DNA of 63,323 bases, the filler included, from Collodictyon triciliatum (taxonomy: Eukaryota): assembly GCA_043381765.1 (NCBI GenBank). It is 6 parts of 6 records of this genome, joined end to end, with 100 filler letters (N's around TTAATTAATTAA, not from the genome) between each part and the next. Parts side by side here need not be neighbours in the genome. Positions count along the whole stretch, not along the records: positions 13,970 to 32,278 come from JBHJMP010001381.1; 5 more parts are not named here. The stretch is one strand, 5' to 3'. Of the stretch, positions 663-59,799 are shown one piece after another (position 1 is the first letter of the stretch; every line of letters begins with the position of its first letter). The position numbers and the translations under genes were made by a program. A model generated the notes under the pieces. The model was not told the DNA's origin and ran no database searches. It saw only the letters and a program-made list of their open reading frames with translations.

Positions 663-2666
663 GCTGCATCCACGGTTGAAGACGACGATTACTATTCAAT
701 TTTTTGTTATTAGTGCAAATCACCTGGCTTTTTCCATGACTTTATGTTCAAAATAAACATATGCCAAACCAAGAAGCGCGGTGGCTATCGCGCGATGAGT
801 GATGCCCTTCATCTCAATAGCTACAGTTATTTATATGATTGGTTGCATTCAGACTCTTGCTTCTAAACATTATTCATAATCCAGAAACCTCTGGCTTCTC
901 GGAAAGAGAATTTTAGACTGTTCAGTTAATCGTGAATGAAGGTCCAATCTCTTTGAGTCATTCATACAAAAAAAAAAAAAAAAAAGTCATGCGGTCTTTG
1001 AATGGTACTTCGATGTTTTCATATAATATAGACACATAGAATCATGAATTCAATATCTTTCTTAATCATATCCATGTATAACGAAGTGTGCCCAGCCCAT
1101 CCAACTTCATAAATATTGATCAGGCCATAGGCCACCCACAAAAAATAATTATATCGGATCATTCTTAAACGCCCCAGTTTTTTATCTTGGTATCTTTTTC
1201 AGAGATCTCTAATGATCACCCAGAACATATGATTCGTTATATAAACGGGACTGGATCTAGAGTGGTGATCTTGATTGTCATTCCGAATGGCAAAACTTTG
1301 AAAGATTAAGGTAGCTTTAACTCAAAGGGCGAAATATACATCAATAACATTATAAATCCGCTATATGTAGTCGAATCATCGTTGCATAGCTCGCGGTCGC
1401 TGTTCCGTCCAGGTGATGGGTCTCTCATCCGGTAAAGTCGTGCTGCCCTCGGCTCCTCTGACTCAAACTATAAGTACCTCTGTTCTGTATATATGAAGCC
1501 ATCATATTTTTGTTAAGTCATGGTGAATTGGACATATCTTACATATACTTCTGCACTTGCGTGACCGCTACCGAGAAAAAAAAATACTCGCCACTTTGAC
1601 ATTCCAAAAAAAAAATGTTCGCATCCTTATCATTATCCATGACAGTATGCCCATTACATACAGCGTGTAGCCTCTGATAAGTTTTACTCTATGACTTGTA
1701 CGCAGATCTCAGTCACCTGGCCGTCTCCATGTCTATGGTGTGGTGCTGTGACTCTCTTCTTTTCTGTAGAAAATATTCAGCAAGTGTGGATAAAGAACAT
1801 AATGTCGGCAAGAATGGGAAGCAGCAGACTATTCGTGAGAATCTATGAGTGTGTCAGCATTAGTTAAGGTTCCCAAAGTGCCACTGAAAATAGCACAAAG
1901 GGTTGGTTTACGATGCACATCTGAGTACAGAATGACCATGCGTCAGTATTTCTCGCACATAATATGTATGGTCACAAGCTCCAAAGTTGGAATGACGAGC
2001 TCGTCAAGATGAGAGGCGCACCTCCAAACCCTACATATCCTTTTGGTCGAAGGTCCAGCACAGGTTGTAGCCTAACTTAAAAAACACACAAAAAAAACCG
2101 GTTGTTGGACTCTTCGACATAGACTCTGTAGCTCTTCCTGGCTGGAGCGCTTCTTGTGCCTTCCACACGTGTACTTGATCCTTCGAAAGACCTAGACGGG
2201 CTCAGAGTCAGAGTCGAGGTGGTTGTGGTAAAGAAGGCTGCTGTTCTCAAATAAAACATTCTTTAAGTCAAGAAGACTAGAAAAGCTATTTTGTTTTCGT
2301 TTCTGTTGGTGTTTGCGTGTAGCGGGTTGGCTGAAGAGCAACCAAGACCCAAAAACAACAGCCTGGGTCATAAGGAAAGGCCGGTGGATGCATCAGTGAT
2401 GTTGAGCTCTAACGTTTGTAATATTGACACGTCTGTTTGGGTGTATAGACTTGCAGATTTGTGGAGATGATTGCACCTTCAAATCGCAACTGGGTCGAAC
2501 ACCACCACTGTATAAATACAAAGCGACCCTAGCGGACAACGAAAATTTCAAATGCAAGCTACTTAATATATATATATGTGTGTGTGAATCGCTTGACTAA
2601 AAACACTTGATTTTCAAGGTCAAGTTCTGTGGCCAGAAGCGCGCCATATTATGATGGATGGGAAAT

Positions 2667-4865: not shown

Positions 4866-13585
<8,720 letters not shown>

Positions 13586-13869: not shown

Positions 13870-13969
13870 NNNNNNNNNNNNNNNNNNNNNNNNNNNNNNN
13901 NNNNNNNNNNNNNTTAATTAATTAANNNNNNNNNNNNNNNNNNNNNNNNNNNNNNNNNNNNNNNNNNNN
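13870..13969. other. Artificial contig spacer N44-TTAATTAATTAA-N44
   Basis: 100-bp N linker with a six-frame stop cassette. Confidence 0.98.
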
Positions 13970-16940: not shown

Positions 16941-17954
16941 ATGTAAACCTCAGCAACGCGAAGCCTGAGTGGCCAGGGTTGTCCGTTTATTCAAGTTTCG
17001 TTCCCTTTTGTTCGTTCCTTTCAAGGTGAGCGGCTTCGGCATCAAATCGCCTCGTGAGCGCGAATCTTTTTTTGCAGCAGCCGGTCGGTCGCCAACCAGT
17101 CCCGAGTCGAGTCGAGTCAACCAACAAATGTCGTCTGCAACACGCAGCCACGAGCAACGCGATACAACGAGGACTCACGAGTACACTCATGCACCCACAA
17201 CACACACAAAGGGCTCTGCAATATGCCGTCATACGACCAAGTCTGCTACACGCACGAGGACAAGGAGGAATACGAACTCGCTGCGACAAAGATGAAAGGT
17301 TCGCCCACCCCATATAGAAGCCATGTAACACCCTCAAGTAAAAAAAAAAAAAAGCTAAAAATTAACTTGGATAATAAAGGCATGAAGAATCAATACTGTC
17401 ATCCAAAAAGAAAGAGGTCATTTATATTCGGTACCACTCTTATCATAAATATGTCAATTTATGGAATTTACAGCATTTTTTTTATTCTTTCAATTTTTGC
17501 GGCAGGAACATACATTATGCGTTATTTAGAGATATCGCACCTGGAGCGCACGAGAATGTTCTGCCTTCCCAATCACCACACGAGCCACACATCGCACGCG
17601 ATTGACACACAGCCCAACGCGTCCACCTATATAATGCGATGGCCACATATTTATTCGGACGGAAGATTCGCCGGCCTTTGTGGGGTATTTAAACTTCATC
17701 CAGTTGAAATCATTGCTGCCTCGCGTTCTCTCTTTTCTCGCTACCTTTATGACATCTCATATTCGCAATCCGCGTTCTATTCTCTGTGTGCACAACTGCA
17801 CCGCTCACCCCAGCAACGCTCATCCTGTATTACTTGTCAAGTGCAGTCACAAAACAAATAAACACTGCTGTGCACTAACACAACCCATTCTACTAATACA
17901 CGCACAGCCCTCAGAACCTGTCCAAAACCGCCTTCCCTTTCCATCTCTGACGCG

Positions 17955-19250
17955 ATGGCCGACGAGGCCGCACTTTTAGAAGAAGTTCGAAAAAGATCCG
18001 GACATTTTCGCGACACCACCTCTTTAAAAAGCTCCACGAGTTTAGGTTTAGGCGGGAAAGATTTAACTTCCGTTCCTTGTGGTATCTTTTTGTTGACTTG
18101 TCTGAAAGTGCTGAATCTTGGTGGAAATCTGTTGCCATCGCTTCCTCCACAAATATCTTGTTTGGCAAGTCTCACTGGGCTTTATGTTAGTGGAAATAAG
18201 TTGTCATTGTTGCCTGTACAAATATCGTGTTTGACTGGTCTCATTGAGCTATATGTTAGTGACAATAAGTTGTCATTGCTGCCTGTACAAATATCGTGTT
18301 TGACTGGTCTCAGTAGTCTTTATGTTTTTGACAACCTGGTATGTTTTATTGGTTTGTTATATTTTAATTCACCTTGAAAAGAGAAAGTTGCTGACAACGA
18401 TACACGCAGATGGAGGAGCTTCCGGTGCAAATCACAGCGCTCACAAATCTAAATGAGCTCTACATCGAATACAGTGGAAGAATTAACATTAAGAGGGCGC
18501 CGTGTGGCCTCACAGCCCTACCAGCATGGAACAACACAAAGAGGCCTTGGCCAGGAATGAGACTGAGCCATGCCAACGCCCTCCGAAAGCTGCAACTTTG
18601 TGAGATGGTAAATATATCGATGATGATACAAACAATTTACTTAATATTCCTAAAAAAAAAATTAAGAATAAAAGAAAACCCAATATAAACCATAAACACA
18701 GTTAGAATCAATCTCGGAGCCAGGATGGGCTCCAACAACAGAGGAAATCGAATTCCATTCATTCAGTCTGTACAGAAGGAGCCTCGTCACTTTGCCAGAG
18801 AGCATCACACTTCTAAAAAACATGACCTTTTTGAATCTATCGGGAAATCATGTAATTATCTTCATGAGTCAATAAATCGGTGTAAATTTATGTACAGTAA
18901 ATGCCAATAGGAACGACATAGTTCACCGACATCCCAGAGCATCTGTTTTGTCTGACTTTGATCAAAGCTCTTGATGTTTCCAACAACAGGGTATCATCAA
19001 AAATCATTTTGAATTTTGATTTGATAAGTAAAATCTTCAAATAATAAAACTGAGCAACCCGTAACACCAACAAGATATCGATTATTCCTGAGAGTATCAA
19101 CCAACTCTGCAATCTCGAATAACTGGATGCTTCGAGGAAATAAGGTGGTTGTAAATTGGAAATTTGATGGAAAAAAACATAGCAACTTTGTATCACATGA
19201 ATGGTTTGCTGACGCTCGCAGACGATATGATTGATAGGCTCACCATCTTA
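17955..19250 (+). pseudogene. Leucine-rich repeat gene, spliced, 3' part disrupted
   Basis: Exon 1 has LxxLxLxxNxLxxLPxxI repeats (LKVLNLGGNLLPSLPPQISCL). Later exons read FTDIPEHLFCLTLIKALDVSNN and ISIIPESINQLCNLE*LDAS, with an in-frame TAA near 19119. Directly followed by the LINE remnant. Confidence 0.7.
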
Positions 19251-19770: not shown

Positions 19771-21942
19771 AAGATACCGCGAAAAATATTAATCTGACTC
19801 TTGAGAGAGTTTGAACAGATTGATAAATGGTTCTTTGGACTAGTAAAGGAAAAAGAAAAGACATTGTATCCGTCCTGCACACCATCTGAGGATATGCAAC
19901 ATTTATTATCTCGCAACAACAAAAAGAACACCCACGACTTCTTCTCAAAGATGTGGTCAAGACGAGACTATGATGCTGCTACTCTCGAGCTTATCACCAC
20001 AAATTGCTCCAAGGCTTCACCCTCGCAAGCAGCCAGCATGATAACACCAATAGATGCAGGCGAATTGTGGAAAGCGGTCAAGTCGCTACACAATGGAAAG
20101 GCGCTAAGTCCAGATAGGCTGCCCAACGGAATATACCCTGCTTTCTTTAATGAGGTCAAGGCATCCTCAGTGGCTTTTCTGAATGGAATCATGTCTGGTG
20201 GCGACTACCGCAAGGATTTACGGAGGCCACGGTGCGGCTGATACCAAAGAAAGGAAACTCGAGCAACCTTGCAGACTGACGACCAATATCGCTGTAGAAT
20301 AACGACTACAAGATATTCACGACACTACTCAGAAATCGCATATCACCCATCGCTGACGAACTCATATCCAAAGAGCAGATTGGCTTCATGAACGGAAGGA
20401 ACATCGACACAAACATCTGGGTTGTCAACAAAGAGTACATAGAATATCAAGTAAGCGGGACACCCCGCGCTATGATTTTCTACGACCTGGAGAAAGCATA
20501 AGACTACGTGAACTGCGAAGCACTGGAAACAATCCTACATAAAAGAGGCTTCTGCGCCGGATTCACCGGCCTTATCAAGAAATTGCACGACAATGTAACA
20601 GCGAGGGTACTCACGGCACACGGACCTATGGATGCAATCCAAAGACAGAGCGGGGTGTATCAAGGCTGCCCACTTGCACCACTGCTCTTCAACTTTGCCG
20701 CTGACTGCCTTGCAGATCACTTCCGAAACCAAAACAAGGTGCGCAACCAACTGCTACTTCAATATGCAGACGACACAGCTTTCATTTTGCGGTCTCCCGA
20801 AGGCGCCACACTCGCCAACAAATGCATGCAAGATTACACACGAGCTGTCGGCGGGAAAATCAACTATGACAAGACAGAAGGAATTCTTTTTGGGTTTCAG
20901 GACGGACTGATGTTTCCAGGAAACATTGTGTGGAAGTCACCTTCACATCCACTCAAGTATCTTGGCATCATCTTCGGTCCGCAATCGGATAACAAATGGA
21001 CAGGCCTGGTTGAGGACATCAAGTCGAAAATATCAGTCTGGAGCAACTTTCATCTCTCGGGTGTCGGGAAAGTAAGGTTGTGGAACCAAGTGATGCTGTC
21101 GACCCTTATCTACAACATGAAAGGCACTGTGCTGAATCCCCAAAGGCTGAAGGAGCTGGAAGACATCTACTTCAACTTCATCACTACGAATAATCAAAAA
21201 ATACAAAAGCTGGAAGCAAGCCCGTATACCTCAGCTACTTCCGAAACACCACGCCCTACTGCTCAATATCTCCAACAGAGAGCTGTGGATAGGTGCGTGG
21301 TGTAGTCCATGCAGCAACGACATCTACAGAATGCACAATGTGCCATAGTGGAGATGACTCTATCGAACACACATTTATTGAAGTGTTCCCTTGCTCAAAA
21401 AGTGCCAGAATCCACCCACAAGATGCTTTCTGAACTTGATTATGCTCCCAACCGACCCAGCGCATCAGACATCCTGTTTGGCCCACAATACCATATGACC
21501 CACGACTCTAGAATACTCTGGACAGTCACAAGGGGACATATGCTGTGGTTCTTATGGAGTGTGTGTGCATTCTCTCGCTCTAATGATTCACCCGAACGAG
21601 AAATCAATATATCCCGGCTTGAAAGCCTCGTGCAATACAGCTTCTTGAACAGCCTGCTGAAACACGCTCGCATTCTTCGCTACTCTGACCGCAGGCAAAG
21701 AGAGATGTGGGAATATGTCGTAAGATATCTCACACAGTATATCAAACCCCTGCTACCCACGCAACCAATCGACCAGTTGGGTCTCCCGCCTGGCCAGCTC
21801 GCTATCACTGATTTCTTTCCAGTGCTAACTTCTTCACGGTAGTGTCTTCTCTTACTCACATTGGCTCTCTACCATGCGCTCCCATCCCGCCCCTTTGCAT
21901 GGCTTAACCTCGCTACACTATGAATCGAATAAAGGAAAAAAA

Positions 21943-22226: not shown

Positions 22227-23214
22227 AATCGATGCGACAGAACATGGTCAACAATCATATCAAGTCTTTGTTACATCCCCTGAAGAACACGCACATGACG
22301 AACCAAATAACTAAGCACCTAAATATCGCGATGAGCTGTGGGGGTTAGCGAAGCAGTTGTCCCAGGCCAACATTATCAAATATCAACATACAAAACCCAT
22401 GCGACTCCATATCCCTCGCGGTGGGCATATACTTTGAAACTAATCCAGCAGAGCCATCACCAAGTCACGAAAGTCACGAGAGTTTCAAACCACGATATTC
22501 GCAAAGGAGTGGGTTGACCTAAATGGTTACGCTTTATGTACGTATGATAAATGTGTGTATAATTTGAGAATTGTGGTCCATTTTAACGTGAAGCTATTCA
22601 AAATGATTCATTTATTGTCTGTCAAACTAAGTCAATTCGTGTCTTCTGGAGGTTTTTCTTTGAGTAATAAGTACCTAAGAACATTTTCATGAGCATGTTG
22701 TATCTATTCTGTCTCCGATGTTTTCTAATGCGGACATAGTGGGCGAATACTATTATCAGAATGCTACGATTTCTATTTCTTCATAATCCGATTTTTTTCA
22801 ATGCACTCAGGTTCTTCGATCTGTCACCACATCCCTATTACTCGCAATAATATTGACAAATAGCATTCAGATATCAATAATTTAATTTGCTCAACAAAAA
22901 AACTATGTAAAATATCAATATTCATAGTGAATATTTTATTGAAGCCTAACTGATTTCTCGAATATTATGCCATTCATAGTCATGATGTTGAAAAAACCAA
23001 ATTTTGGAGAATTTGTGAATCGAGGGGTCTATTAATTATCTTTATAAAACAGAGGGTGCATATATCAACCAACCTTATTTAGAGTAAAAATTGAGTCAAA
23101 AGCATATCTCTTTCCTTACGTTCTCTTATGAAAAGATACTGAATTTGCACTGAGCTAAGTTATTTTTGGGAACTTAATTTTAACTTGCAAAGAAGAAACA
23201 GGGAATTTCAAAAC

Positions 23215-26200
23215 ATGTCCGCAACCGAAACAAGCACCGAGGCCAACGTCAGCCTTGTCACCATTGACGAAGTCTGTACAAATACATACATTATCTTCAA
23301 GAAATATTTTTATGTATCGGAATGGATTGATAACTTAATCTGGCAACTGAGCACAGGCTGTCCTCGAATGGGTGAACCACCACCTGGGAAAAATCGAGCT
23401 CAAGGCGAAGAACATCCGCGATGACTTAATGGACGGGTTCTTTTTGGCCATGCTGTTTGAGACGGTCATCGGAAAGTCCTTAGGAAGCTACCACTCCCGC
23501 TTGTTTGCGTATGACTTATTTATGATATTCACAATTTTTATAGTTTATTTCTATATTTCATGGATTGTTATTTAATCCCTGTATTTATATCAGTGATAAA
23601 GCTATTGAGGAGGAGGTTCTTGTTGACGAGAATCAAAAACTCATTGTTGATTGGTTTCTGAAATTGAATGTGCGTGATGAGGCTGTTGCTCCTCAGGCCC
23701 ATTACGCTGGTTTGCTTCATTTGTTTTAAAGGGACATAATATTGGAATTTTTCATACATCATACATTTATTTTGCATTAGTGACGTATACATATTCTTAC
23801 AGATTTGCTCAATACAATGCTCCAGTATCTTATTGGAAAAAGCGTTGGCGATTTGGGAAGCCTTGGGGTAACAATTTCTTTACTTTTTTCTATTTCGACT
23901 CTTATGTAATTTAATTTCTGAATATTGAAAAACTTAGAAAAAATGTCGTGAGAGGTACGATATTGCCAAGAAGCTCTACGAAAGAGCGAAGGCCCCGTTT
24001 CCGTTCCATGGTTGAAATTTGATTTATTTTCATTTTTTTATATTTATTAATTTATTGTTTTGTATTTATTTCTCAACTAAATTAAATTTATATATTGATG
24101 CAGGTCTTGGTCTGGAAGAAAAAGGCTCTGTCGTCCTCATCCGCACTTGCATTCTTCTTGACAAGGTAATGAATAATTTATTAAAATAATTAAAGTTTGA
24201 CCAAATACATTCCTTTTGTGAAATATAATCTCCTTTTCAAATCAGATGAAGCTTGCTCGTGAAGACCTGAAGGAGAGGCAATACAAGAAGTGGAATCCGG
24301 CTCCACAAAGATACGTGTCACCAACACCATTGCCACTCATTGTATTTGACGAGCGTGTCGTTCGTGCTTTCCTTTCCTCGACTTTCCGTGACATGCAGCA
24401 AGAAAGAGACGAATTCTTCAAGAACGGAGCCCCTGAGTAAACATAATACATTTTTATATTGGGAAGTCATGATAGGGAATGATAATTTGATGGTTTATTT
24501 TATAACAGTGTTATCTGTATGTCAGGTTGAAAAGGCTTGCAAAATCGAAGGGAGTGGACCTTGTCTTTATCGATTTGCGCTGGGGACTGACTTCTGAGGA
24601 CAGTAGTGAGGGATGGGTAATCACAATATTATTAACATTATTTTTTGAAACTTTCAATATGCTGCAATTTTATAGAATAATTAACTTCAATTTTCTCCTG
24701 TTACTTCAAGGTTGTGATTCGCTGTCTGGACTCTATCGGAAAATGCCCATACTTTGTGTGCTCTCTCGGTGCGCGTTACGGCTGGATTCCTGACCAAAAC
24801 AAAACGGAGCTGAACAAACAGGCCCGCCTTGAGGAGCTGCTGAATACCAAGCCTGATGCCACCATGAAGGATGTCTGGGTGGAATGGCGCAGTGAAACTA
24901 ATAGCCGCTTCCCTTTCATCGACGGAATGCCTGGGCTGAGTGTGACTGAATACGAGGTGAAGTCGATATCTACGTTTTATTCTGTATCTATTTATGAACA
25001 TTAATTGAAAAATAAACAAAGCAATCTCTAAATCATTTATTCATGTCCAGATTCAGTATGCCTGTCTGATTGACAAGCCAGCATGCAGCCGCGCCTTCTT
25101 TTACCTCCGCGATGAGCACTATGCTGTCGAACATGCCAAGAGCGAGGAAGAAAGAAAGCTTTTCCAAGCTGAAAGCAAAGAGGCGGTAAAAATTGATACA
25201 AATTCTTAATCTTCATTTCCAAGTAATGTATGTTATGATTGTTTAATGATTTAATTGTTTGTCATATATTATAATATATTTTTTTAGCGTAAAAGGCAGG
25301 ACGAGCTCAAAGAGAAAGTTAAGGCCAAGTTCGGTCATGTTGTCTTCAAAGGAGCGAAAGAGTATTCGGAATTTGTGACCTACCATCTCTCCTATGCCAT
25401 CGAGCGTGACTTTGGGAATCAAATTGTAATTTTTATGGATTTATGGATTGAGATTTAAGTATCGATTGGTAAGGTATATATTTCATTTCTATTACGTTGA
25501 CATAACTATACCCTAGGTGAGAGACCCTGAAGACCAAGCGCAGCACCAGTTCAAGATGCATCGACTGGCTGGGTTTGGCGGAAGAAAAGAGCTTCTCAAG
25601 ACAATTACGGAGCAAGTAAGATGAAAATCAATCAATTAAAATGACAACAATTTCCTTTGATTTTTTCTTATCAATTTTTTATCAGGCTATGAACCAGCTG
25701 AGCATCGAGAAATCCAAAATCATCGTTCTTGCTGCCGAGTCTGGTATTGGAAAGTCGTCACTCATGGCTGCTACAGCGAGAGACCTCGAAGGGCTGAAGC
25801 ATCCTGGGCTGCATGTCTTTTTCCATTTTGTTGGATGCACCAATCTCAGCAACTACGTGGAAAGGTTAATTTGTTTCTTTTTGTTTTTATAGATATAAAT
25901 ATATTTTATTGTTTTTTCTAAAAATATTTGTATTATTTTAGTGTGTCGATTCGCTTCTGGACTCTGGTCGCAAATTCTGCCAACTTTGTCGAGCAAAAGA
26001 AGCAGGAAGCAGGTATTACATTATTGTATTTTATTTTTATCTTTTCGATTTAAATGACGTATAACAATTCTTGCATTTATTTTATTTTACCACTAGAATA
26101 CGAAAAAGAGGGACTCCAGGGCTTGCTGAAGATGATCCAGGAGAAAAACAAGTAATACGTCAATTTGTTATATTTTTTGATAAATCGAAATTAAATACTA

Positions 26201-29200
26201 GAATCGAATAAAAAAATTGGTAATAAACAATTATGTTTTATAGGGACGAGAAGTTTGTCTTCCTCATCGATGCCATCAACCAAATCCACCCGTCGCAAGG
26301 AACGCCAGCTCCGCATCTGCTGACCTGGTTACCCAAGGAAACACCACCTAATGTTTCCGTGGTTGTTTCGACCATTCATACCCATGAATCTTGCGCGGTA
26401 TTCACCATTTATTTATTATTTTTTGTATATGTTTGTTTTCTGCATAAAAAATGAATTGAGTGGAACTTTACTTAATGTATCTGTCATAAGTCTGCTAAGC
26501 AAAGTGGACTGGAGCCGATTCCTGTCGCCAAGTTGACCGAGGGCGAAATTAAGGACGGTGTCGAAACATTCCTCATTCGCTACGACAAGACCCTGAACGA
26601 AAAGCAAGTTGGAATGATTCTGGCTGACCTGGAAGATACTGGTGAGGCATTTTTAATAAGAGTGTATATGTTGATAAAAAAATTTCCAAGGAATGATTTA
26701 GTTATTCTTATCTGATATTTTTTATAGGCCATCCACTTTATCTCCGCATCATTCTGGATGAAGTCAGGGTCTTTGGTGTCTATGAGAAGCTCGATGATGA
26801 ACTGAATACGCTGCTTTCGACCAACGGTGTCATTGAGCTTTACACTCTCATTATCAAGCGCTGGCAATTGAAGTTTGACAGGAAAGGTGAGTATTGATTG
26901 TACATATTTCATAAAAATAAAAAGTGCAAATTATAATAGCAATTTTTGTTGAATACCTTTTTTTTTTAATTGTACAGTCTCCTCGTCTGATGGAAAAGAG
27001 ACAATGAAGGTCGAGTATGTCTCCCTCTCGATGAAGGTTCTCTTTGTCTCCCGCATCGGCCTGAGTGAAGGTGATTTGGACAAGTACATGAAAGATGCGA
27101 TTGGCACAGGATTCGAGCTTGCTGAATGGTTTGCTTATTCTTGAATTTTAATAGAATTTATAGGTTTACCCTTTCTCATTTTTTCATTTTTTATTTAATT
27201 TATCTTTTATTCATTCAAACAGGAAATCCTTTTTCTTTACCCTCATCGAGTCACTTTTCGTCCGCAATGGAAGGTTAGTGTTATTTTCCTAATTTTTCGT
27301 TCGTTAATCGGTGCTTTCAGTATAATTATATTTTGGATATAAAGCTGACTATTGTTTATCATAGATACATGTACTTCCACCAGCTGCTGTTGGAGACCAC
27401 TGAAAAAGTTTACTTCTCCGAAAACCAGGAGATGGAAAAAACGCACGAAAAATACGGAAAATGGCTGTTTGGCCAGTATTCTGAGGCTGCCGACGCAGAT
27501 GAGGAGCTTGCTGCTGAGATATGCTACCAACTTCTGAAGGGCAGTTCGTTTGACTTGCTTGTGGAATACATGAAGCAAAAACATGTAATTTTTTATTTTT
27601 TATTTAATTATTTAATTATTTTCACTCATGATGAAACGGCATTCACTGATTAATTTTAAATATTTCATAGGTTATCAGTATCATGCTTGGTGGCCGCTAT
27701 CGCTACGAGTTCTTTACATGCTGGAGAGCAATCAACGCAAGCGGAGCGGCAAACTACAAAGATGCGTATGGAAGCTTGGCTAAGGTATTTTACTATTTAG
27801 TTTTATTTTTTTTTTGAAGGTTACTAACAAAATTTAAATATTAATCATGATTTATTTATTAATTATTGTTTTTTTTTTATTAATTTTCAGTCTTTGGATA
27901 ATGTGGGAGACCTGCTGGTTGGATTTTTCTTGGAGTCTTTTGAAAACTCATTCTTGTTGTCTGTTCTGAATGTGCGTCTTGCGAAGCATCAGACAGAAGG
28001 TATGCAATTCATTGTCTTTGATGATTAATTTTTGTCATGAATATGAGTTATATGTGGAGACAATCAATAATCTATCAATTCATAGATGCAAAGTCTGCTG
28101 ATTACCTGAATCTCGGTCGTGTCTACAAGAACCTCCAAAAGTATAAAAAGAAAACATCATAAAAAACATTAATGATATACTCAGGACATGACATGATGTC
28201 TATAATGAAAACTTTTCTAAAATAAAAATAAATTAAATAGCTGGGCTGAGTCCATGGTCTACTACAAGAAATGCCTTGATTCAGTTGAGAAAAACGAAGA
28301 TGATTCCCTGCGTATTGCTACCATTCATGAAGAGATGGGAATCATCTACCAGCAACAGGATAAGTAAGGCTCGTTTTCAATTATAAATTAAATTATGAAT
28401 AATGTTTCAAAAAGGAATTATTCTGATTTGCTTATGAAATAGAATTGATGAAGCTCTTGATGAATACAAGAAATCACTAGACCTGAGAATCAAACAACTG
28501 GGCGAGAACGACCTGCAAGTGGCCCAATCGCATGACCGCTTCGGAGACATCTATGTCAAGCAGTCAAAGTAATATTTGAATCATTTATATTCGTTAGCAT
28601 TATGCCTTTATTCGAAATATGTAAGTATGCTGATCAATTTTTATGATAGGAATGAGCAAGCTCTGGATGAATATGAAAAAGCCATGGAAATCCGCCAAAA
28701 GAAAGTCGGAAACGAGCATCCCCTTGTCGCAACATCGTACCAGAACTATGGCCATGTCTCTCTGGCTGGGAAAAAGTATCACAGTCATTCGATTAAAGAC
28801 AGTTTTAAATACAACTATGATATTTTGAGAAATATTAATATGATTGAATCACCAAGGTATCAAGAATCTATTAAAAACTACGAAAAGGCGAAATCTATCC
28901 TTGAAAAATCGCTGGGAGCTAAGCATGCATCCGTTGCCTCGACAATCCAGTTTATTGCGAGTGTTCATCTTGCCAATGAAAAGTTCGGATTCCTAAATTA
29001 CGGATATTTTCATAAAACAATAATAATTTTCTATTTCTTACAATTTGCAAAATGAGTTTAGCTTCATATTGTTCATTTTTATGGACTCTATTTGGGGTTA
29101 AAATTATGCATAAGATTATTCTAACTAAATAAATATCAAAACTATTATCTTATATAGGAAAACTGAGGCCTTGTCCTCATTAAAGCAATCGCTGGATATT

Positions 29201-31907
29201 TTCATGTCTGCCCTGGGTGAAAATCATCCGAATGTTGTGGCCTGCTACGAGATGATTGGAGACGTCAGCCATGATTTGAAGGAGTATCTCTTATTATTAA
29301 TTACTATTTTTTAATTGAAAAGAATAATGTTTTTACCCATATTATCCTAGCTTTAAGGGTGCTCTGGAGGCGTATATAAAGACACTGGATATTCGCATGA
29401 GAACACTAGGCGAAAAACATGCAGATTATGCTACTTCTCTTGAGAATGTTGGCCGAACAAATTTTGAGCTTGAAAGGTAATTTTTCTATTATATTAAAAT
29501 TTTTAATATTTGACTAGCACTTGTAAAAAACAATAAATATTGAAAAATAACTAATGCACATGCATCTAGTTCTGCTCAATGTGTTGATTGCTTCCAGAAA
29601 GCAGCTGCTATCAGAAAGGAGACAAATACTGTAATATCGCTGAAAGATGGTTCACAATGTACAAGGATTGCGGAACTTATGGGAGACAAGAAAGAGCATG
29701 AATTAGTCATTCAGCTTTACAAAACAGCTGCTGTTAGACATGGTGAAAAGTCCTCCTATGAAAATTGGGACTGCTGGGTGGCTTGTGAGAATGCAGATAA
29801 GATTTACAAGGAACTGAAGCAGCATAAAGAAGCAGTGGCATTCTGGGCTGAGATGAGAGACAGATTTGCAGATAAAGTTGGATGGATTCACCCCAGAACA
29901 TTTAACTCATGCGAATACGTGTCCGTCCATTCAAAAGAAATTGGAATCAACAAAGAGCCTGTCGAGTTTACAAGAGTCAAGGACTTCATCTGCGAAACTA
30001 TTGATGATGCAAAACTGGATGAGATATGGAATCGTGAGCAAATCATTGCATCGTTATTCAGAATTGTCTACATGTCAAAGACTGATGAGAGCAAAGCAAA
30101 GGTTGCATCTAATGCAATCACACTTTTGAATTTCATGAATGTTTCTTTCGGTGGAATGGATTTATCAAACATCAAAATTCCACATGCAAATATCAGTAAC
30201 TCAATCCTTGATAGTGTAAACCTCACTGGTGCCAACTTGGATGGTGTTGATTTCACGAATTCGATGCTTGGTGACTGTGTTTTTGATAATGCAAAAATGA
30301 GTAATGTGAAATTCAGAATTCCTCATAATAAACTAGAGGGTCATACGGATTCTGCCATGAGTATTTGCAGTTTTCAAGGACTGAATGGTGAAAACTGGCT
30401 GGCTTCTGGAAGTGGTGATAATACAATTTGTATTTGGGATGTAGCCACAGGAAACCAGATCAAAAAATTAAATGGACACACAAGAACGGTCAATAGTGTT
30501 TGGAGTATTCAAGGAACGAATGGTGAAAATTGGCTGGCTTCTGGAAGTCGTGATAACACAATACGTATTTGGGATATAGCCACAGGAAACCAAATCAAAA
30601 TATTAGAAGGACATACAGATTATATCAAAAGTGTTTGCAGTATCCAAGGACCAAATGGTGAGAAGTGGCTGGCTTCTGGGAGTTATGATAACACAGTACG
30701 TATTTGGGATGTCGCCTCAGGAAACCAAATCAAAATATTACAAGGTCATACAAATCATGTCACTAGTGTTTGCAGCATTCAAGGACCAAATGGCGAAAAA
30801 TGGCTGGCTTCTGGAAGTGAAGATAAGACAATACTTATTTGGAATGTAGCTACAGGAAACCAAATCAATATATTAGAAGGTCATACACGTTTTGTTAGTA
30901 GTGTTTGCAATATCCAAGGGCCGAATAGTGAAAATTGGTTGGCTTCTGGGAGTTATGATAACACAGTACGTATTTGGGATGTAGCCACAGGAAACCAAAT
31001 CAAAACATTAAAAGGGCATACAAGTGGTGTCAGTAGTGTTTACAGTCTTCAAGGACCGAATGGAGAAAAATGGCTGGCTTCTGGAAGTATGGATAACACA
31101 ATACGTATTTGGGATGTAACTACAGGAAACCAAATCAAAGTATTAAAAGGTGATTGGGGTGCTGTCAATAGTGTTTGCAGTATTCAAGGACCGAATGGTG
31201 AAAATTGGTTGGCCTCTGGAAGTGCTGATAACACGATACGTATTTGGGATGTAGCCACGGAAAACCAAACACACAGTGTGCAAAAATCAGAAGTGACCTA
31301 CATCCAAGGAAAATACCTCGTCAACGAAGAAAAGCCAGACGAAGTCATCGCAGTATTCAACAGAACAAGTGATGCGATGAACATGATTGACACCAACAGA
31401 ATCCAAGATGCAAAGACAGTCCAGATTGTCGGCCCAAGAAAGCTACAAGGTGGTAACATCCTAATCAGAAATGTCACAGGATTGATTCAATTCAACAAAT
31501 CCCTCCTACTTTCTATCGGTGCTGCTTCCTTTGATGCGGACTTTGCTGCTTATTGTGAGCAGGGCAAGTTCACAAAGTTCCAGGCTCAAATGTTGGCTGA
31601 GTGCTATGAAAACGGATGGGGTGTTGAGAAGGACAATGAGAGAGCTTATTTTTGGAAAGTTATCGCTCCTTTGAAATTATCATTAGATTTTGATGGATTG
31701 AAGCAACTCGCAAAACAAGGCTCAAAGGATGCATTCAATGTTTTGAAGGAAATGGCTGAAATGAAAACATGGGACGAGAATTATGGTGAATACAAATATA
31801 AATATCCACAAGCTGTTTCTACTGTTGCAGAATGCTATAAGAATGGGTGGGGTGTTGACAAGGACACCGTGAAAGCTGCTGATTGGAGAAAGAAAGCCGC
31901 AGCTTAA
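23215..31907 (+). CDS. NLR/STAND-like multidomain protein: calponin-homology, DUF4062, NACHT-like P-loop NTPase, TPR array, pentapeptide repeats, 7x WD40, SEL1-like repeats
   Basis: Spliced exons: CH-like AVLEWVNHHL...DDLMDGFFLAMLFE; DUF4062 RAFLSSTFRDMQQERD, FIDLRWG, CPYFVCSLGARYGWIP; Walker A-like AESGIGKSSLMA; Walker B FVFLIDAINQI; TPRs ALDEYEKAMEIRQKKVGNEHPLVATSY. Terminal exon 29570-31907 stays in frame and carries the pentapeptide, WD40 and SEL1 (LAECYENGWGVEKD) repeats. Confidence 0.88.
30339..31270 (+). repeat. Seven highly similar 135-bp (45-aa) WD40 coding repeats
   Basis: Unit GHTxxVxSVCSIQGPNGExWLASGSxDNTIRIWDVATGNQIKIL; the similarity is visible at nucleotide level. Confidence 0.92.
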
Positions 31908-32089
31908 CAAGGTAAGTAGTATAATAAATGCATATTGATATATGTTCGTTAACTATAATCATTTTAGATGGAGAGATTCTCTGGGTTTTTTTCAAGCACA
32001 CCTCCGCTTTTTTCCCACCAGGACGCTCCATGAAAACAGAATAAAACCTTAAAAATGAAAGCAAAGCTGATCGATATCTGTTGCATCCT

Positions 32090-32278: not shown

Positions 32279-32378
32279 NNNNNNNNNNNNNNNNNNNNNN
32301 NNNNNNNNNNNNNNNNNNNNNNTTAATTAATTAANNNNNNNNNNNNNNNNNNNNNNNNNNNNNNNNNNNNNNNNNNNN
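32279..32378. other. Artificial contig spacer
   Basis: N44-TTAATTAATTAA-N44. Confidence 0.98.
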
Positions 32379-50437: not shown

Positions 50438-50587
50438 TCAGAACGTGCTCCGTGTTTTTGAACTGGGCTTACGAATGAAGCACAAAGGAAAAGAGACAAA
50501 GCAAAGCGTCTTCGCGCAGGCCGAAACCCCTGCCCTGTGCATTTCTGCTTCGGGCTTCGTGGGCTCGATTTCCTTTTTTTNNNNNNN

Positions 50588-50677
50588 TTTGTTTTGTTTT
50601 GTTTTTGTTTTTGTTTTTGTTTTTGTTTTTGTTTTTGTTTTTGTTTTTGTTTTTGTTTTTGTTTTTGTTTTTGTTTT
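50588..50677. repeat. (TTTTTG)n simple repeat at contig end
   Basis: Direct reading. Confidence 0.9.
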
Positions 50678-50777
50678 NNNNNNNNNNNNNNNNNNNNNNN
50701 NNNNNNNNNNNNNNNNNNNNNTTAATTAATTAANNNNNNNNNNNNNNNNNNNNNNNNNNNNNNNNNNNNNNNNNNNN
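50678..50777. other. Artificial contig spacer
   Basis: N44-TTAATTAATTAA-N44. Confidence 0.98.
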
Positions 50778-50940: not shown

Positions 50941-53079
50941 CTTATCAACTCGTGATTGGCCATAGAGGAAGCTCTACCACAGCACCTGAGGTTATTGGCA
51001 TATCCTACTTTGAAAAAATAAATATACAAGTTGTGTTTATTCCCCGTGTTATCATCATTTTTATTTTATAATTCTATAAATACGATATACATGATTATGA
51101 TTACCCAAAGTCAGCATCTCCACCATCCTGCACAAAATTGAAAGGAAGGATAAAAAAATGCATGATTATTATTGTTATTATTATAATAGAACACCATTAA
51201 ATCATTCAACGAAGCCGTCCTTCAAAAATGTGATGGAATTGAAACCGATCTTCAGTTGACAAAAGATGGATATATAGTCTTGATTCATGACAAGTATGTT
51301 AACTACGAAGGATAGCTTTGACAGTTTTATATTAGTATTAGTATTTATTATTGTAATTATTGTGGTGGTGGTGATGGTGGTGGTGGTGGTGGTGGTTAAA
51401 TTATTCCATCAATTTTCTCTAAATTAAAGAGTATGAATATATCACGTAAAGGACACTTGAAAGAACAACAAACGGAGAAGGGCTTGTATCTGAAAAGACT
51501 CTAAGTTCAATTAGAAGGCTGGATGCTGGGTGTTGGAAAGGCTCACGTTTTTGTGGGGAAAAGGTCCCGACATTCGAGGAACTGCTGAGCCTTCTTAAAG
51601 GAAAGAATATGATTATCATCATGGATCTAAAATCAACAGGATTGGGTGCCGCAATTAAGAAAGCCGTTACAAAGCATGGTAAATATGCATATTCATATTA
51701 AACTGTTATGTTGGGATGGAATATAAGTGTTTCGATCTATATGTGCCCTCAAGTAAACAAATGATAAAAAAAGAGAGGGAAATAAAGACATCGCTCAAAT
51801 AACTTGAATATTTTCTGAATCGAATTATAATATTTTCCAAGGCTACCCACAAGACTTGCTGATAGCCTCATGCTGGACAAACCAACAAGCCCTTGACATA
51901 AAAAAGAATCTCCCTGTAAGAGGATCTTCTATAAAATTACTGTCTCTAAATATATGAGTATTCAAAATTGTGATATCGCAATTATATGTGAATGTTTTTT
52001 TCCCTTTATTCGATTCAAAGAATTATATGTGAATGTTATTATTTTCTTGTTTTTATTTATGAAAGCGCAAACACTATTCCGTAATTTTCGTTTGGAGTTA
52101 TGCGGTGTCCTTGGAGATTTGGGATACGGCAAAGTTCACCTGTATACTAACCACTCAACTACTCAGATGGTACGGACTCAGTTACTAGGAGACGCTCCGC
52201 CCTCGTATAACACAGATTACTGGACCTCGTTGGTACAAACAGGCGTGTCAGGGTTCTCCCTCAATCATGAAACGGTGAGCGCTATACAGAACCGAAATAT
52301 GTCACTTTTTTTCCAAAAGAGCGAAAAGCATATATATATTTTTCATAAAACTTCTAATATTGTAATCAATCATAAATCTGATTCATGTTTAAATAAAAGT
52401 AACATTTTGCCCTTCAGGTCACGAAAGAATTTGTGAGAGAGGCACACAGGCACTTGGTAAATGTCTTACTATTACAAGAGACTTCGTTGTTGAATCTTCT
52501 TCTTCTTCTTCTTCTTCTTCTTCTTCTTCTTCTTCTTCTTCTTCTTCTTCTTCTTCTTCTTCTTCTTCTTCTTCTTCTTCTTCTTCTTCTTTCATTCTTT
52601 CTGAACCTTTACATTTACTTAAATTGTTCGCGCAGATGACTGTCTTTGTCTGGACTGTGGATACCTCGGATGACGTGAAAAAAATGGTATCGTACGGGGT
52701 GGATGGAGTCATCACAAACAAAAACTCAGAGACATTAAGCTATATGAAAGGTATAATTCAGTACACATATATATTTCGATGCGGGAATGGCGACTATATC
52801 ACTGGCGACTCTTTTACCTTCTTAATCGTTTTCTTCTGTGTTTCTTTTTCTCTCTGTCTCGACTGTTATTCAAACTAATACATAAATCCAGATGGAACAT
52901 ATGTTGCTTCTGTGAGCACACCACCATTGCTACCGCAGGTGTCTGCAACAACCACCGCCATCCCGAAACAGTCAGGGGACGCCTCATATCCTTTTGTATT
53001 GACAGTCTTTGTATTTGGTTTTGTCATATCGATTCTCATTCTCATGTCTATTCTCAAGAGAAGAAGACTGATTCCGTGA
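50941..53079 (+). CDS. Glycerophosphodiester phosphodiesterase (GDPD family) with C-terminal TM helix, 5'-partial, spliced
   Basis: VIGHRGSSTTAPE|NTIKSF, DGIETDLQLTKDGYIVLIHD, TLERTTNGEG, LDAGCW, VPTFEELL, VFVWTVD...GVDGVITN; ends FVLTVFVFGFVISILILMSILKRRRLIP-TGA. Confidence 0.9.
51103..51157 (+). mobile_element. 55-nt LINE family B 3'-end insertion in a GDPD intron
   Basis: ...CAGCATCTCCACCATCCTGCACAAAATTGAAAGGAAGGAT-A6 flanked by ATACATGATTATGATT (51087-51102) / ATGCATGATTATTATT (51158-51173). Confidence 0.78.
51997..52020 (-). mobile_element. 24-nt LINE family A 3'-end insertion in a GDPD intron
   Basis: Reverse complement is CTTTGAATCGAATAAAGGG-An; perfect 17-bp flanks AATTATATGTGAATGTT (51980-51996 / 52021-52037). 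Confidence 0.82.
52496..52591. repeat. (TTC)n microsatellite, intronic
   Basis: Direct reading. Confidence 0.95.
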
Positions 53080-53623: not shown

Positions 53624-55004
53624 TCAACGACGGATAACCTTCACAGTTAAAGTTGCCGGCTCCCCAGTGGAATCAGGCACCTGGACTGGAACCGAGAAAG
53701 TACCGAGCTTCTGAATTGGTGCTTCTAACACAATGGTTTCAGGGGCAATCTTCAAGTTGTGTTGCTTGAAGAGTTTTTCGGCGATATGGCTATGGAGGGC
53801 ATGGAAGAATAAGTGTGGAGCGATAGATAACATTACGTGTTTCATTTATCTTGTGTTTTTTTGGTTGTTGGCTGTTAGTTTTTTTTTTTTCCACCCATAT
53901 TCATCGCAATTCAGTTTTGACTGTTGGTTTCTACTCAGCCCTTACCTTGCAGTAACATCATTGATTGGCGGGTCGTATGTCTCTTCATAGTTTCGTTTCA
54001 TCTCGACAGTCAGCTTCGAGATGCGCACTTTAAGCCGGTCAGACGAGCGGCGATCCTCCACAGTCTGGACTGAGGTTGTCTTTGAGATGACGCCGGCATA
54101 TGCAGCCTTGTTTGTCGGAGTAGCGTAGACGGCGAACTGCTTGGGCACAAGATAGTTTCTGGCAAAGCCTGCGCTCACAGAGACACGTTCGTACTGGTAC
54201 CCGCAGTTGGGCACATCGTGAAGGAGAATGACTTCGAGCTGCCCATCATGGCGACGATAGAGACGGGTGTAGCGGCCCGGCGCAATCCCGATATCCCCAC
54301 GTCGGGGAACGCTAATCTGCGGGGCCGCGGTATTAAGCTGCACTTAGTAGGGGGACACGCTTGGCCGAGGGCATGAAAAGAGAGAAGACACTTTGTTATA
54401 TATATATGAAAATATTTTGTATTAATTCCTTGTTATGCAATTTTATTATGTTTTTTTTTTAAAAAAAAAAGTTATATTTCTTATAAATAGTTTTTCAATA
54501 CTTCAGAGACATTTCATTTCTGGTAATTTAAGTCGACATCATTGTTTATGAATAATCTTGAGTTATTATTAGTAAGGGTTGTTACTGCTGGGGCAGAGGC
54601 AGTGTTGTTTCCCTCGGCTTCCTCATGGGTGGCCTGAGTAGCCGCCAAGCGGGACGTGGGAAGAAGTGTTGCAGGAGAAAACCTGCCCAAGAAGAGACAA
54701 TTGGTGAGATGATCAGTTGCGAATTATGTCTTTGCAGTGCGACCAGGGGACCTATTTCTGTTCTCTGAGAATCGTGAGGTTACAAGAGTATCAAAAGAAA
54801 TAGACTTGTTGCCCCTCGAAAAAGAATCAAGATGCAAGACGAAAATACGTGTAGAGATACTTGTCTCATGACAAAGAAAGAAAGAAAAAAAGAAAGAAAA
54901 AAAGAAAGAAAAAAAGAAAGAAAAAAAGAAAGAAAAAGAAAAAAGAAACAAACAAGAAAGTATGGCTGAAACCTGAGGAAAGAACCAACGGAGCGTGCCA
55001 GCAT
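53624..55004 (-). CDS. MRPL9: Mitochondrial ribosomal protein bL9m (spliced; 5' exons tentative)
   Basis: L9 N-domain LEVILLHDVPNCGYQYERVSVSAGFARNYLVPKQFAVYAT and C-domain LEAPIQKLGTFSVPV...LTVKVIRR (core 53624-54343). Tentative upstream exons give MLARSVGSFLR|FSPATLLPTSRLAA, a presequence-like N-terminus. Confidence 0.82.
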
Positions 55005-59699: not shown

Positions 59700-59799
59700 N
59701 NNNNNNNNNNNNNNNNNNNNNNNNNNNNNNNNNNNNNNNNNNNTTAATTAATTAANNNNNNNNNNNNNNNNNNNNNNNNNNNNNNNNNNNNNNNNNNNN
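59700..59799. other. Artificial contig spacer
   Basis: N44-TTAATTAATTAA-N44. Confidence 0.98.

Follow-up and report, generated by a model that had tools for sequence, protein, structure and literature searches.

Does the long spliced frame on the plus strand of a Collodictyon triciliatum sequence, at positions 23215-31907, represent one gene, and what kind of protein would it encode? The window, i.e., the whole stretch of DNA analysed, comprised 63,323 nucleotides. Dynamic-programming exon chaining yielded a single spliced frame running from an ATG at 23215 to a TAA at 31905-31907, with 31 exons and 1994 codons plus the stop. No in-frame stops were found in any of the 31 exons of this model. 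All 30 introns were of the GT..AG type, with a length of 67-175 bp (median 90 bp) and an A+T content of 71-88%. The end of exon 1 and the start of exon 2 were set from an RNA joint, which corrects the preliminary description. The transcribed features were as follows:

23215-23271, 23357-23508, 23594-23709, 23803-23867, 23938-24010, 24104-24165, 24246-24436, 24526-24616, 24711-24956, 25051-25185 (+): coding exons 1-10
25288-25425, 25517-25615, 25686-25864, 25942-26012, 26097-26151, 26244-26397, 26491-26641, 26728-26886, 26978-27128, 27223-27273 (+): coding exons 11-20
27365-27584, 27671-27784, 27891-27999, 28086-28140, 28241-28363, 28443-28568, 28650-28775, 28857-28982, 29158-29283, 29351-29476, 29570-31907 (+): coding exons 21-31
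31910-31967 (+): 3' UTR intron, from a GT..AG joint of 31909 to 31966 (cut +2) in contigs of three of the four runs

Spliced contigs of the RNA runs reproduced the introns of the model. Among the 15 RNA joints listed, out of 82, 13 were model introns, one corresponded inexactly to a model intron, and one was the 3' UTR intron, which begins a few bases past the stop codon. Contig pieces bridged two more model introns, and loose ends fitted at least three others, including 29476/29570. This RNA support consists of short contigs that are 90-99% alike, with no single read across the whole gene; that two of the four runs are RNA is a guess. The model was also collinear with two transcriptome-derived proteins of Diphylleia rotans (EukProt EP00002), P0006 and P0109. 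P0006 was 52% identical to the locus protein over 990 columns. P0109 (2619 aa) aligned to residues 18-1816 in one HSP, with 49% identity over 1812 columns, continuing to the first Sel1 repeat. Because the RNA contigs reproduce the introns and P0109 is collinear over these residues, the locus is one gene spliced as one message, as the preliminary description had proposed. The opposite view, that exon chaining wrongly fused neighbouring CH-NIR-NACHT-TPR and pentapeptide-WD40-Sel1 genes or that the locus is a pseudogene, could draw on P0006, the first homologue found, which stops within the first TPR unit, and on the 29476/29570 junction, which no RNA contig of at least 99% likeness spans. However, in two runs the loose ends at 29476 and 29583 connect the final TPR exon with the large exon of a nearly identical copy. 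Moreover, the TPR units, helical extension, pentapeptide stretch, WD40 repeats and tail, with a Sel1-like repeat, lie within a single chain in each of the transcript-derived proteins P0109, P0110 and P0133, and the exons are free of in-frame stops. We therefore regard this opposite view as close to refuted.

The order of regions in the 1994-residue protein, which refines the preliminary description by six TPR units, two Sel1 repeats, the helical extension and the post-propeller region, was as follows:

23357-23867 (+): CH domain, aa 20-130, exons 2-4, from the exon 2 Pfam match and homologue alignment
23938-24356 (+): conserved connector between CH and NIR, aa 131-212
24357-25525 (+): NIR/DUF4062 domain of the TIR-like NADase type, aa 213-445, from DUF4062 exon matches, homologues and a family profile
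24387-24389, 24774-24776, 24954-24956 (+): NIR key residues R223, R291 and catalytic E351, from alignment
25526-26792 (+): NACHT-type STAND NTPase, aa 446-700, from exon Pfam matches and homologues
25734-25757 (+): Walker A, AESGIGKS, with K498, from motif columns
26254-26283 (+): Walker B, FVFLIDAINQ, with D586, from motif columns
26793-28126 (+): conserved post-NTPase region, presumed helical arm, aa 701-960
28127-29570 (+): array of six TPR_12 (kinesin-light-chain type) units of 41-42 aa, aa 961-1216
29571-30128 (+): helical (TPR-like) extension, aa 1217-1402 (~185 aa), from an AlphaFold model and homologues
30129-30332 (+): pentapeptide-repeat beta-helix, aa 1403-1470
30333-31277 (+): seven WD40 repeats of exactly 45 aa each, aa 1471-1785, in the last exon
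31278-31562 (+): post-propeller region without an assigned family, aa 1786-1880 (~95 aa)
31563-31904 (+): two Sel1 repeats, aa 1881-1994

Pfam was run on 27 of the 31 exons singly (the exceptions being three exons of 16-17 aa and the 19-aa exon 1) and gave matches in 12 and none in 15. The CH, DUF4062 and NACHT scores of the locus protein come from these single-exon queries and are all below cut-off, so the three calls rest on homologues. In P0006, CH (34.1 bits), DUF4062 (42.9 bits), NACHT (27.4 bits) and nSTAND1 (32.0 bits) all exceeded the cut-off. Together with the exon matches, these scores back the earlier view of an NLR-like core made of DUF4062, NACHT and repeats.

The N-terminal CH domain was likewise upheld. 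Exon 2 alone gave a sub-threshold CH match (21.7 bits, E 2.4e-4, cut-off 26) and a CH_2 match of 18.1 bits, and the stretch was 31-36% identical to the CH domains of P0006 and P0109 over 105-107 aa. The first 400 aa of P0109 scored 46.8 bits for CH (cut-off 26), and the P0006 domain matched CH1 chains of plectin and alpha-actinin (E about 1e-5). By analogy, the CH domain probably places the protein on the cytoskeleton; the tether and decoy roles suggested earlier are both hypothetical. The connector that follows had no Pfam match in the single-exon search and was 32-35% identical to P0006 and P0109.

The NTPase exons matched NACHT, NPHP3_N, AAA_16 and nSTAND profiles at 15-18 bits, with NACHT/NPHP3_N at about 17-18 bits in two exons, and the domain was 59% identical to those of P0006 and P0109. 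The P-loop Lys and Walker B Asp are kept. The Walker A reading was confirmed, but the A at its first position, singled out earlier, is a common family variant (A in nine and G in 18 of 28 aligned members). The PROSITE P-loop pattern allows either residue there. Since N-Q, not acidic residues, follow Walker B, NTP may be hydrolysed slowly or not at all. The post-NTPase region (56-61% identity to P0006, P0109 and P0133) had no Pfam match in the single-exon search and is presumed, by analogy, to be the winged-helix/helical arm of STAND proteins.

Each TPR unit occupies a separate exon; five of these exons are exactly 126 bp long and one is 123 bp, all in identical phase. The TPR_12 profile matched all six exons (13.7-30.5 bits), and over 256 aa the array was 41-43% identical to P0109 and P0133. 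The extension behind it, kept in P0109, P0110 and P0133, was modelled as nine helices (mean pLDDT 85.5), which Foldseek matched weakly to the TPR domains of kinesin light chains (E 2.2e-3 at best, TM about 0.32). The pentapeptide stretch (45.8 bits, cut-off 20.2) aligned without gaps to P0109, and its AlphaFold model showed a regular five-residue strand ladder. The WD40 repeats (213 bits in seven stretches), predicted to form one seven-bladed propeller, were 64-80% identical to one another in protein and 76-87% in DNA. Their variation was concentrated at repeat positions 2, 6, 7, 9, 28 and 45, which differed in 90% of repeat pairs versus 20% at the other 39 positions. The overall dN/dS between repeats was 0.43, with no direct sign of positive selection. 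Fungal NACHT/NB-ARC-WD40 receptors of the HET-E/NWD type resemble the locus in having highly alike WD40 repeats with few variable positions. The post-propeller region was modelled at low confidence (pLDDT 31-65) and was 40-47% identical to the tails of P0109, P0110 and P0133. Sel1 matched in two stretches (41.9 bits, cut-off 30.7); one contig of the RNA runs links 31645 with 31966, adding 33 other letters, and corresponds to a one-repeat Sel1 variant. The mixing of repeat types was rightly called rare: among the Pfam domains listed for 88 relatives, TPR was listed with WD40 for one and with Sel1 for one, and pentapeptide repeats were listed for none.

The architecture as a whole, previously thought undescribed, also occurs beyond this locus, as D. 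rotans transcripts encode the same domain order (the whole order in P0109, its C-terminal part in P0110 and P0133). P0109, P0006, P0110 and P0133 share with the locus protein the connector, helical extension, post-propeller region and Sel1-like end. They differ in having 186-270 extra N-terminal residues, where the locus protein has 19 aa before CH, and one Sel1-like repeat only, where it has two. P0109 further shows CH in two stretches of its first 400 aa and carries, roughly at aa 1630-2490, many more than seven WD40 repeats. Among the Pfam domains listed, CH appeared for one of the 88 relatives; in P0109, CH was found additionally by script.

According to the available parts of three 2026 preprints (including 10.64898/2026.05.01.722283 and 10.64898/2026.09.04.749371), DUF4062 is a TIR-like NADase, renamed NIR, and eukaryotic NIR proteins are mostly NLR-like. 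In the locus, two exons matched DUF4062 at 18.2 and 24.1 bits, against a cut-off of 24.7, and the domain was 62-67% identical to those of P0006 and P0109. Family profile A1 matched the human TEP1 NIR crystal chain 11gz_A (E 1e-60, chain residues 3-218). When the chain numbering places R908 and R976 at the conserved arginines of FRDM and SRYG, E1008 falls on the invariant Glu of S-x-T-E-x-E. These residues, which human TEP1 requires to hydrolyse NAD+, are kept in the locus protein as R223, R291 and E351 (the last codon of exon 9), as were all 34 invariant or near-invariant columns checked. The TEP1 BB-loop Arg (R954) has no counterpart in the locus protein, as read from the profile A1 alignment. 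We infer NADase activity from these residues, in keeping with the nucleotide-processing effector suggested earlier. No NADase activity was seen for full-length human NWD1, NWD2 or NPHP3 in the available parts of the two preprints although their Glu is kept, and conservation therefore does not prove activity. In the 2026 preprints, as far as available, the assayed TEP1 and bacterial NIR systems gave only ADP-ribose and nicotinamide. This counts against a variant in which the same NLR-like switch makes an NAD+-derived signal for a separate downstream effector, without NAD+ depletion, as raised for NIR domains by analogy with TIR (10.64898/2026.09.04.749371, available parts). No candidate for such an effector was seen within the window, and we give this variant little credence.

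The inactivity of the human proteins suits another reading, a non-immune STAND scaffold associated with the cytoskeleton or flagellum in the manner of NPHP3/NWD1, with NIR as a protein-protein interaction module and repeats binding fixed partners. NPHP3_N and TPR_NPHP3 were among the Pfam matches of locus exons and P0133 (TPR_NPHP3 at 89.7 bits in P0133, against a cut-off of 100), the presence of CH is in keeping with a cytoskeletal role, and the 49% identity to D. rotans across the kept architecture would be expected of a stable cellular job. A pure scaffold, however, would not need the catalytic Glu and both Arg, which are kept in 28 of 28 or 27 of 28 relatives. Against it also stand the many D. 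rotans paralogues (P0006, P0109, P0110, P0133, P0126, P0010-P0018) with swapped N- and C-terminal modules, whose extra domains include CH, RRM (P0011) and COR (P0018), and the WD40 repeats so alike save six hypervariable positions. Such swapping and such repeats are marks of diversifying receptors in fungal NLR-like genes. On balance, we consider the scaffold possible but rather unlikely.

Among known systems, human TEP1, NWD1, NWD2, NPHP3 and TTC41, as described in the available parts of 10.64898/2026.09.04.749371 and 10.64898/2026.05.01.722283, resemble the locus in placing NIR directly before a NACHT-type NTPase, then a helical arm and C-terminal repeats. These repeats are WD40 in TEP1 and NWD1/2 and TPR in NPHP3, whereas the locus stacks TPR, pentapeptide, WD40 and Sel1. 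NIR lies inward of the extreme N-terminus, as it does in TEP1, behind a domain of targeting type: TROVE/vWA in TEP1 and CH in the locus protein, which lacks both TROVE and vWA. Identities to bacterial and other eukaryotic relatives were 20-26%, so judged by sequence the protein is not an orthologue of these human proteins. Bacterial Avs2-NIR (PsAvs2), Swarozyc, Vulcan, Vesta and Evangelion share its logic of N-terminal NIR effector, STAND NTPase and C-terminal repeat sensor. In these defence systems, the NIR Glu is essential and NAD+ is depleted after sensing (2026 preprints, available parts). They are prokaryotic, intron-less and have a TPR-like sensor for phage terminase/portal, in contrast to a 31-exon eukaryotic gene, and lack CH, WD40, pentapeptide and Sel1, all four of which the locus protein has. 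In APAF-1, a WD40 propeller serves as the autoinhibitory sensor of a STAND NTPase (10.64898/2026.05.01.722283, available parts), as proposed here for the locus. The effector differs (NIR versus CARD/HET in APAF-1/fungal receptors), and the locus adds repeat classes and a CH head. Because the NIR-NACHT NLR-like class was already published in the 2026 preprints, the novelty of the locus is smaller than first thought.

We therefore favour, with moderate confidence, a 1994-residue NLR-like STAND protein of the NIR-NACHT class that acts as a ligand-triggered oligomerising NADase receptor, with CH placing it on the cytoskeleton. We infer the immune function, and with it the putative NADase activity and CH role, and draw the mechanism by analogy with NIR-bearing Avs proteins, TEP1 and APAF-1-type STAND switches. 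In the resting state, the C-terminal repeats would be folded back on the NTPase, holding the protein as a monomer. CH, most like plectin/alpha-actinin CH1, would most likely set it on actin or another cytoskeletal partner, in parallel to TROVE placing TEP1 in the vault. A ligand bound on the repeat surfaces, the best candidate being the propeller's top face, which would carry the hypervariable WD40 positions, could trigger nucleotide exchange and oligomerisation and so bring the NIR domains together. As a result, NAD+ would be lost locally or throughout the cell, which would stop growing or die, or a signal would be produced.

We modelled the gene at 23215..31907 (+) by exon chaining, a dynamic programming procedure trained on the long exon and then on its own output, and refined the choice of acceptors and donors from homologue and RNA evidence. 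The model comprises 31 exons and 1994 codons, running from the ATG at 23215 to the stop codon at 31905-31907. All 30 introns are of the GT..AG type, with lengths ranging from 67 to 175 bp (median 90 bp). Upstream, the frame runs into a stop codon at 23140-23142, 24 codons ahead of the ATG. The surrounding DNA is intron-rich and eukaryotic, with a G+C content of ~35-39%, and open frames on the plus strand are mostly short, the exception being a 787-codon frame at 29544-31907. One script-proposed 'intron' of 66 bp (30271-30336) was rejected as wrong because the alignment with P0109, a homologue derived from a Diphylleia rotans transcript, passes straight through this stretch.

Part of the stretch was found in 20 sequencing runs, each containing at most 0.10 of its words. 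Contigs were compared with the window for four runs: two freshwater metatranscriptomes (X6 and X16) and two small runs whose RNA nature was guessed (X1 and X3). These contigs were 90-99% alike to the window and therefore originate from alleles, paralogues or close relatives. Among the 15 joints listed (67 more exist), 13 were GT..AG skips exactly at model introns, and the joint 25616->25689, from a divergent copy, reproduced model intron 25616-25685 inexactly. The remaining one belongs to the 3' untranslated intron described below. The boundary between exons 1 and 2 was set by the joint 23271->23357 in an RNA contig. Contig pieces bridged 26884->26976 and 27584->27671, while loose contig ends read across 24616/24711, 28568/28650 and 29476/29570, the last being the junction of the final tetratricopeptide repeat (TPR) exon with the big exon. 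Read depth over the WD40 part was inflated by repeats and relatives and was left out of the analysis. The preliminary description had proposed one spliced frame from 23215 to 31907, and this is borne out both by the RNA joints, which match the introns, and by P0109, which is collinear with the model on one transcript.

The ends of the transcript extend beyond the frame. Contigs of three runs carry the same sequence of at least 30 letters ahead of 23207, absent from the window, which suggests a spliced 5' leader exon with its source further upstream or outside the window. This shared leader departs from the window before 23207 and contains a stop in frame, 10 codons ahead of the ATG, and 23215 was therefore taken as the start. 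Further upstream in the window, we found no exon similar to the 186-270 aa by which the D. rotans proteins are extended at the N-terminus. At the other end, a GT..AG joint in three of the four runs marks a 3' untranslated intron at 31910-31967 (+), which starts a few bases past the stop.

The gene and the features around it are as follows.

165-695 (-): open frame with WD40 (87.8 bits) that continues beyond the window start
11345-11785 (-): exon-sized RhoGAP frame (61.7 bits)
17862-18377 (+): leucine-rich-repeat open frame in a G+C-richer stretch (LRR_8, 49.6 bits)
19798-21842 (+): three adjoining open frames, with RVT_1 at 20502-21305 (52.1 bits)
23215-31907 (+): the gene studied
52393-52878 (+): exon-sized frame with a GDPD fragment beside a poly-Ser run
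53942-54343 (-): exon-sized Ribosomal_L9_N frame (64.7 bits)
13870-13969, 32279-32378, 50581-50777, 59700-59799 and 61861-61960: runs of N, mostly pairs of 44 N with 12 bases between (447 N in total)

The RhoGAP, Ribosomal_L9_N and GDPD frames are ordinary neighbouring genes. The stretch at 19798-21842, which lies ~1.4 kb upstream of the gene and has a G+C content of 0.48, above its surroundings, looks like the remnant of a non-LTR retrotransposon. The N pair at 32279-32378 follows the gene's stop by ~370 bp and sits in A/G-rich low-complexity DNA, with poly-Lys frames on the minus strand.

The domains of the gene were assessed by a Pfam scan of 27 of the 31 exons, each taken singly; 12 had matches. 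The last exon scored above the cut-offs for WD40 (213 bits, cut-off 27, seven stretches), Pentapeptide (45.8 bits, cut-off 20.2) and Sel1 (41.9 bits, cut-off 30.7, two stretches). TPR_12 matched six exons, one at 30.5 bits (cut-off 30.1) and five at 13.7-28.6 bits singly. In the N-terminal half, single exons stayed below the cut-offs: exon 2 alone matched the calponin homology (CH) profile PF00307 at positions 6-45 with 21.7 bits (cut-off 26), two exons matched DUF4062 (PF13271) with 18.2 and 24.1 bits (cut-off 24.7), and two matched NACHT (PF05729; 17.3 and 17.0 bits) and NPHP3_N (18.1 bits).

Homologues from D. rotans carry the same domains on single transcripts. P0006 (1245 aa), the product of a Trinity transcript in EukProt, was found with an 82-aa exon from the DUF4062 part and aligns with model residues 24-1009 at 52% identity (516/990) with small gaps only. 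All of its Pfam matches in this region exceed the cut-offs: CH at 34.1 bits, DUF4062 at 42.9 bits, nSTAND1 at 32.0 bits (cut-off 27.1) and NACHT at 27.4 bits (cut-off 26.7); within the DUF4062 domain it is 62% identical to the window. An exhaustive search with the last exon gave 318,846 matches at E<=0.001, mostly WD40 proteins, of which the top one was P0109 (2619 aa). This protein aligns with model residues 18-1816 at 49% identity in one HSP of 1812 columns, and its similarity to the model goes on across the post-propeller region as far as the first Sel1 repeat. Its residues 1-400 match CH at 46.8 bits in two stretches; the CH stretches of P0006 and P0109 are 31-36% identical to the window over 105-107 aa. 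Two further D. rotans proteins, P0110 (2520 aa) and P0133 (1219 aa), have TPR, helical extension, pentapeptide, WD40, tail and a Sel1-like end, and the TPR_12 arrays of P0109 and P0133 score ~136 bits. From the alignments of P0109, P0110 and P0133 it follows that the full domain order is present on single transcripts of a second organism. Judged by these domain assignments, the gene has the three-part build of an NLR, with a predicted effector, a STAND NTPase and a repeat sensor.

The effector candidate is the DUF4062 domain, for which work from 2026 is available. According to one preprint, DUF4062 is a TIR-like NADase; the activity of human TEP1 needs E1008, with contributions from R908 and R976, and increases with concentration (10.64898/2026.05.01.722283). 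A second preprint renames the domain NIR and describes depletion of NAD+ by Avs2-NIR, dependent on E108 (10.64898/2026.09.04.749371). We built a family profile (A1) from 28 relatives and aligned it with 11gz_A, the crystal chain of the human TEP1 NIR domain (E 1e-60, chain residues 3-218). On the assumption that this 220-residue chain ends at residue 1113, R908 is the Arg of S-T-F-R-D-M, R976 the Arg of S-R-Y-G and E1008 the second Glu of S-V-T-E-M-E. The numbering is supported by the fact that all three sites fall on conserved family columns. The counterparts in the window are R223 (R908), R291 (R976) and E351 (E1008 of TEP1, E108 of PsAvs2). The Glu column holds E in 28 of 28 relatives, and when the window model is aligned to A1, none of the 34 invariant or near-invariant NIR columns checked is lost. 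Conservation of these residues predicts that the NIR domain of the gene hydrolyses NAD+, with ADP-ribose and nicotinamide as products. The codon of E351, the presumed catalytic Glu (24954-24956, +), is the last of exon 9 and lies directly at the splice donor.

The main rival reading holds that the protein is a scaffold at the cytoskeleton or flagellum, non-catalytic and of the NPHP3/NWD1 kind. The same preprints describe human NWD1, NWD2 and NPHP3 as inactive in vitro (10.64898/2026.05.01.722283), although these proteins keep the catalytic Glu (10.64898/2026.05.01.722283, 10.64898/2026.09.04.749371). The window retains this Glu together with both Arg residues that contribute in TEP1, as would be expected of an active enzyme, and its CH domain would suit a scaffold as well.

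The NTPase retains both nucleotide-binding motifs, Walker A reading AESGIGKS (K498) and Walker B FVFLIDAINQ (D586). The Walker B Asp is followed in the family by [AG]-h-[ND]-Q, with N-Q in the window. The classic P-loop pattern allows A or G at the first Walker A position. The preliminary description had read the motif correctly and had remarked on the A at the first G position; this is not unusual, being a normal family variant, since A occurs there in nine of 28 relatives (G in 18).

The relatives of the gene were surveyed to place its architecture. The close relatives of both protein halves all come from D. rotans, and the nearest are D. rotans paralogues throughout; this is compatible with, though no proof of, a related freshwater protist as the source. 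A search with the CH-NIR part of P0006 among proteins of 684-2179 aa (5429 candidates) gave 88 matches. Among the Pfam entries listed for these, CH appeared for P0006 only, TPR with WD40 for one of the 88 and with Sel1 for one, and pentapeptide for none. As a pair, pentapeptide and WD40 are not rare generally, adjoining each other in 24 of 258 proteins compared. A word-based search of longer proteins with the last-exon linker returned four pentapeptide proteins among 432 candidates and no relatives. In the ESM Atlas, the CH-NIR part of P0006 scored 0.75-0.77, below the meaningful level, with all matches to DUF4062 clusters. A Pfam scan of the 15 top representatives was swamped by beta-propeller families, and segment-wise blastp was used instead. 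Within the window, no second NIR or NACHT copy was found, only the WD40 ORF at the window start (matches to 6-641, -), which is 30-36% identical to the gene's propeller and may belong to a different repeat protein.

The gene belongs to the eukaryotic NIR-NACHT NLR-like class, which is by now known. Unlike TEP1, it has no TROVE or vWA domain in the exons before NIR (Pfam by exon) and has CH there instead. What is unusual is the combination of the CH head with a sensor of four repeat classes. In literature searches covering the main texts of preprints, we found no paper describing a CH-NACHT or CH-NIR protein. The query combining calponin homology, NACHT, WD40 and TPR yielded no paper; among the matches listed, calponin with NACHT gave none relevant by title, and Diphylleia with NLR gave none relevant. 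In D. rotans, two other proteins of the family, P0011 and P0018, have RRM (PF00076) or COR (PF16095) in place of the CH domain or repeats. From its domain content, the NIR-NACHT family appears to swap accessory modules.

The TPR units are encoded by five exons of exactly 126 bp and one of 123 bp. All six exons share one phase, so that the gain or loss of a unit would leave the reading frame intact; similarity among them at the DNA level is low (38-52%). Each of the seven WD40 repeats has a length of exactly 45 aa, and they share 76-87% DNA and 64-80% protein identity. Variation is concentrated at positions 2, 6, 7, 9, 28 and 45, where 90% of repeat pairs differ, compared with 20% for the other 39. 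Position 28 precedes the conserved Asp and positions 6-9 come after the G-H dipeptide; in WD40 structures, these positions sit on the top face, which is the ligand-binding side. Across the repeats, overall dN/dS was 0.43, so the variability is a pattern and not proof of selection.

Other parts of the last exon were examined by structure prediction. For its first 254 residues, the AlphaFold model (mean pLDDT 85.5) has nine helices followed by a regular five-residue ladder of strands. Foldseek gave weak matches to kinesin-light-chain TPR (best E 2.2e-3) and also to pentapeptide proteins; for the helical extension, no match was found at E<=0.001. The nine helices and the kinesin-light-chain matches imply that the TPR array runs on, in the form of a helical extension, up to the beta-helix. 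The 95 residues past the propeller are conserved in D. rotans and were modelled with low confidence (pLDDT 31-65). In run X1, one contig links 31645 with 31966 (+) through 33 different letters resembling the protein's final residues and therefore represents a near-identical copy with one Sel1 repeat, not two. It resembles the D. rotans homologues in this respect, and the window appears to have gained its second Sel1 repeat recently.

How these parts may act together can be proposed by analogy. Most likely, as in Avs2-NIR, TEP1 and APAF-1, a ligand would release a switch and the resulting oligomerisation would activate NAD+ hydrolysis. The CH domain of P0006 resembles CH1 of plectin, alpha-actinin and MACF1 (E 1e-5 to 1e-4), a likeness by which the domain may bind F-actin or microtubules. 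From such proteins we infer that CH would give the receptor a cytoskeletal address. The paralogue expansion in D. rotans and the hypervariable repeat positions are indirect signs of a role in defence or non-self recognition. In a broader reading, which we consider rather improbable, interchangeable N-terminal modules would serve as 'addresses' that send NIR-NACHT machines to particular cell structures, where these would consume NAD+. The modules in question are CH in this gene and two D. rotans paralogues, RRM in another and TROVE in TEP1.

If the address reading holds, the gene, from a deep-branching protist, would encode an NADase receptor that resides at the cytoskeleton or guards it, and in which four repeat folds in series would read several ligands. 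On the same reading, CH could instead act as bait for pathogen factors that attack actin-binding proteins. NADase activity of the NIR/DUF4062 domain was demonstrated only in 2026, and here the domain is found with the catalytic Glu and the TEP1 Arg residues kept, linked to a CH domain of cytoskeletal type. The gene is also a clean test object, as the NIR domain is small and E351Q is the obvious control. The family has an unusually composite sensor, is conserved between two protists and has expanded in one of them, with head domains swapped, which makes it a natural system in which to ask at what place and time NIR domains fire in eukaryotes.
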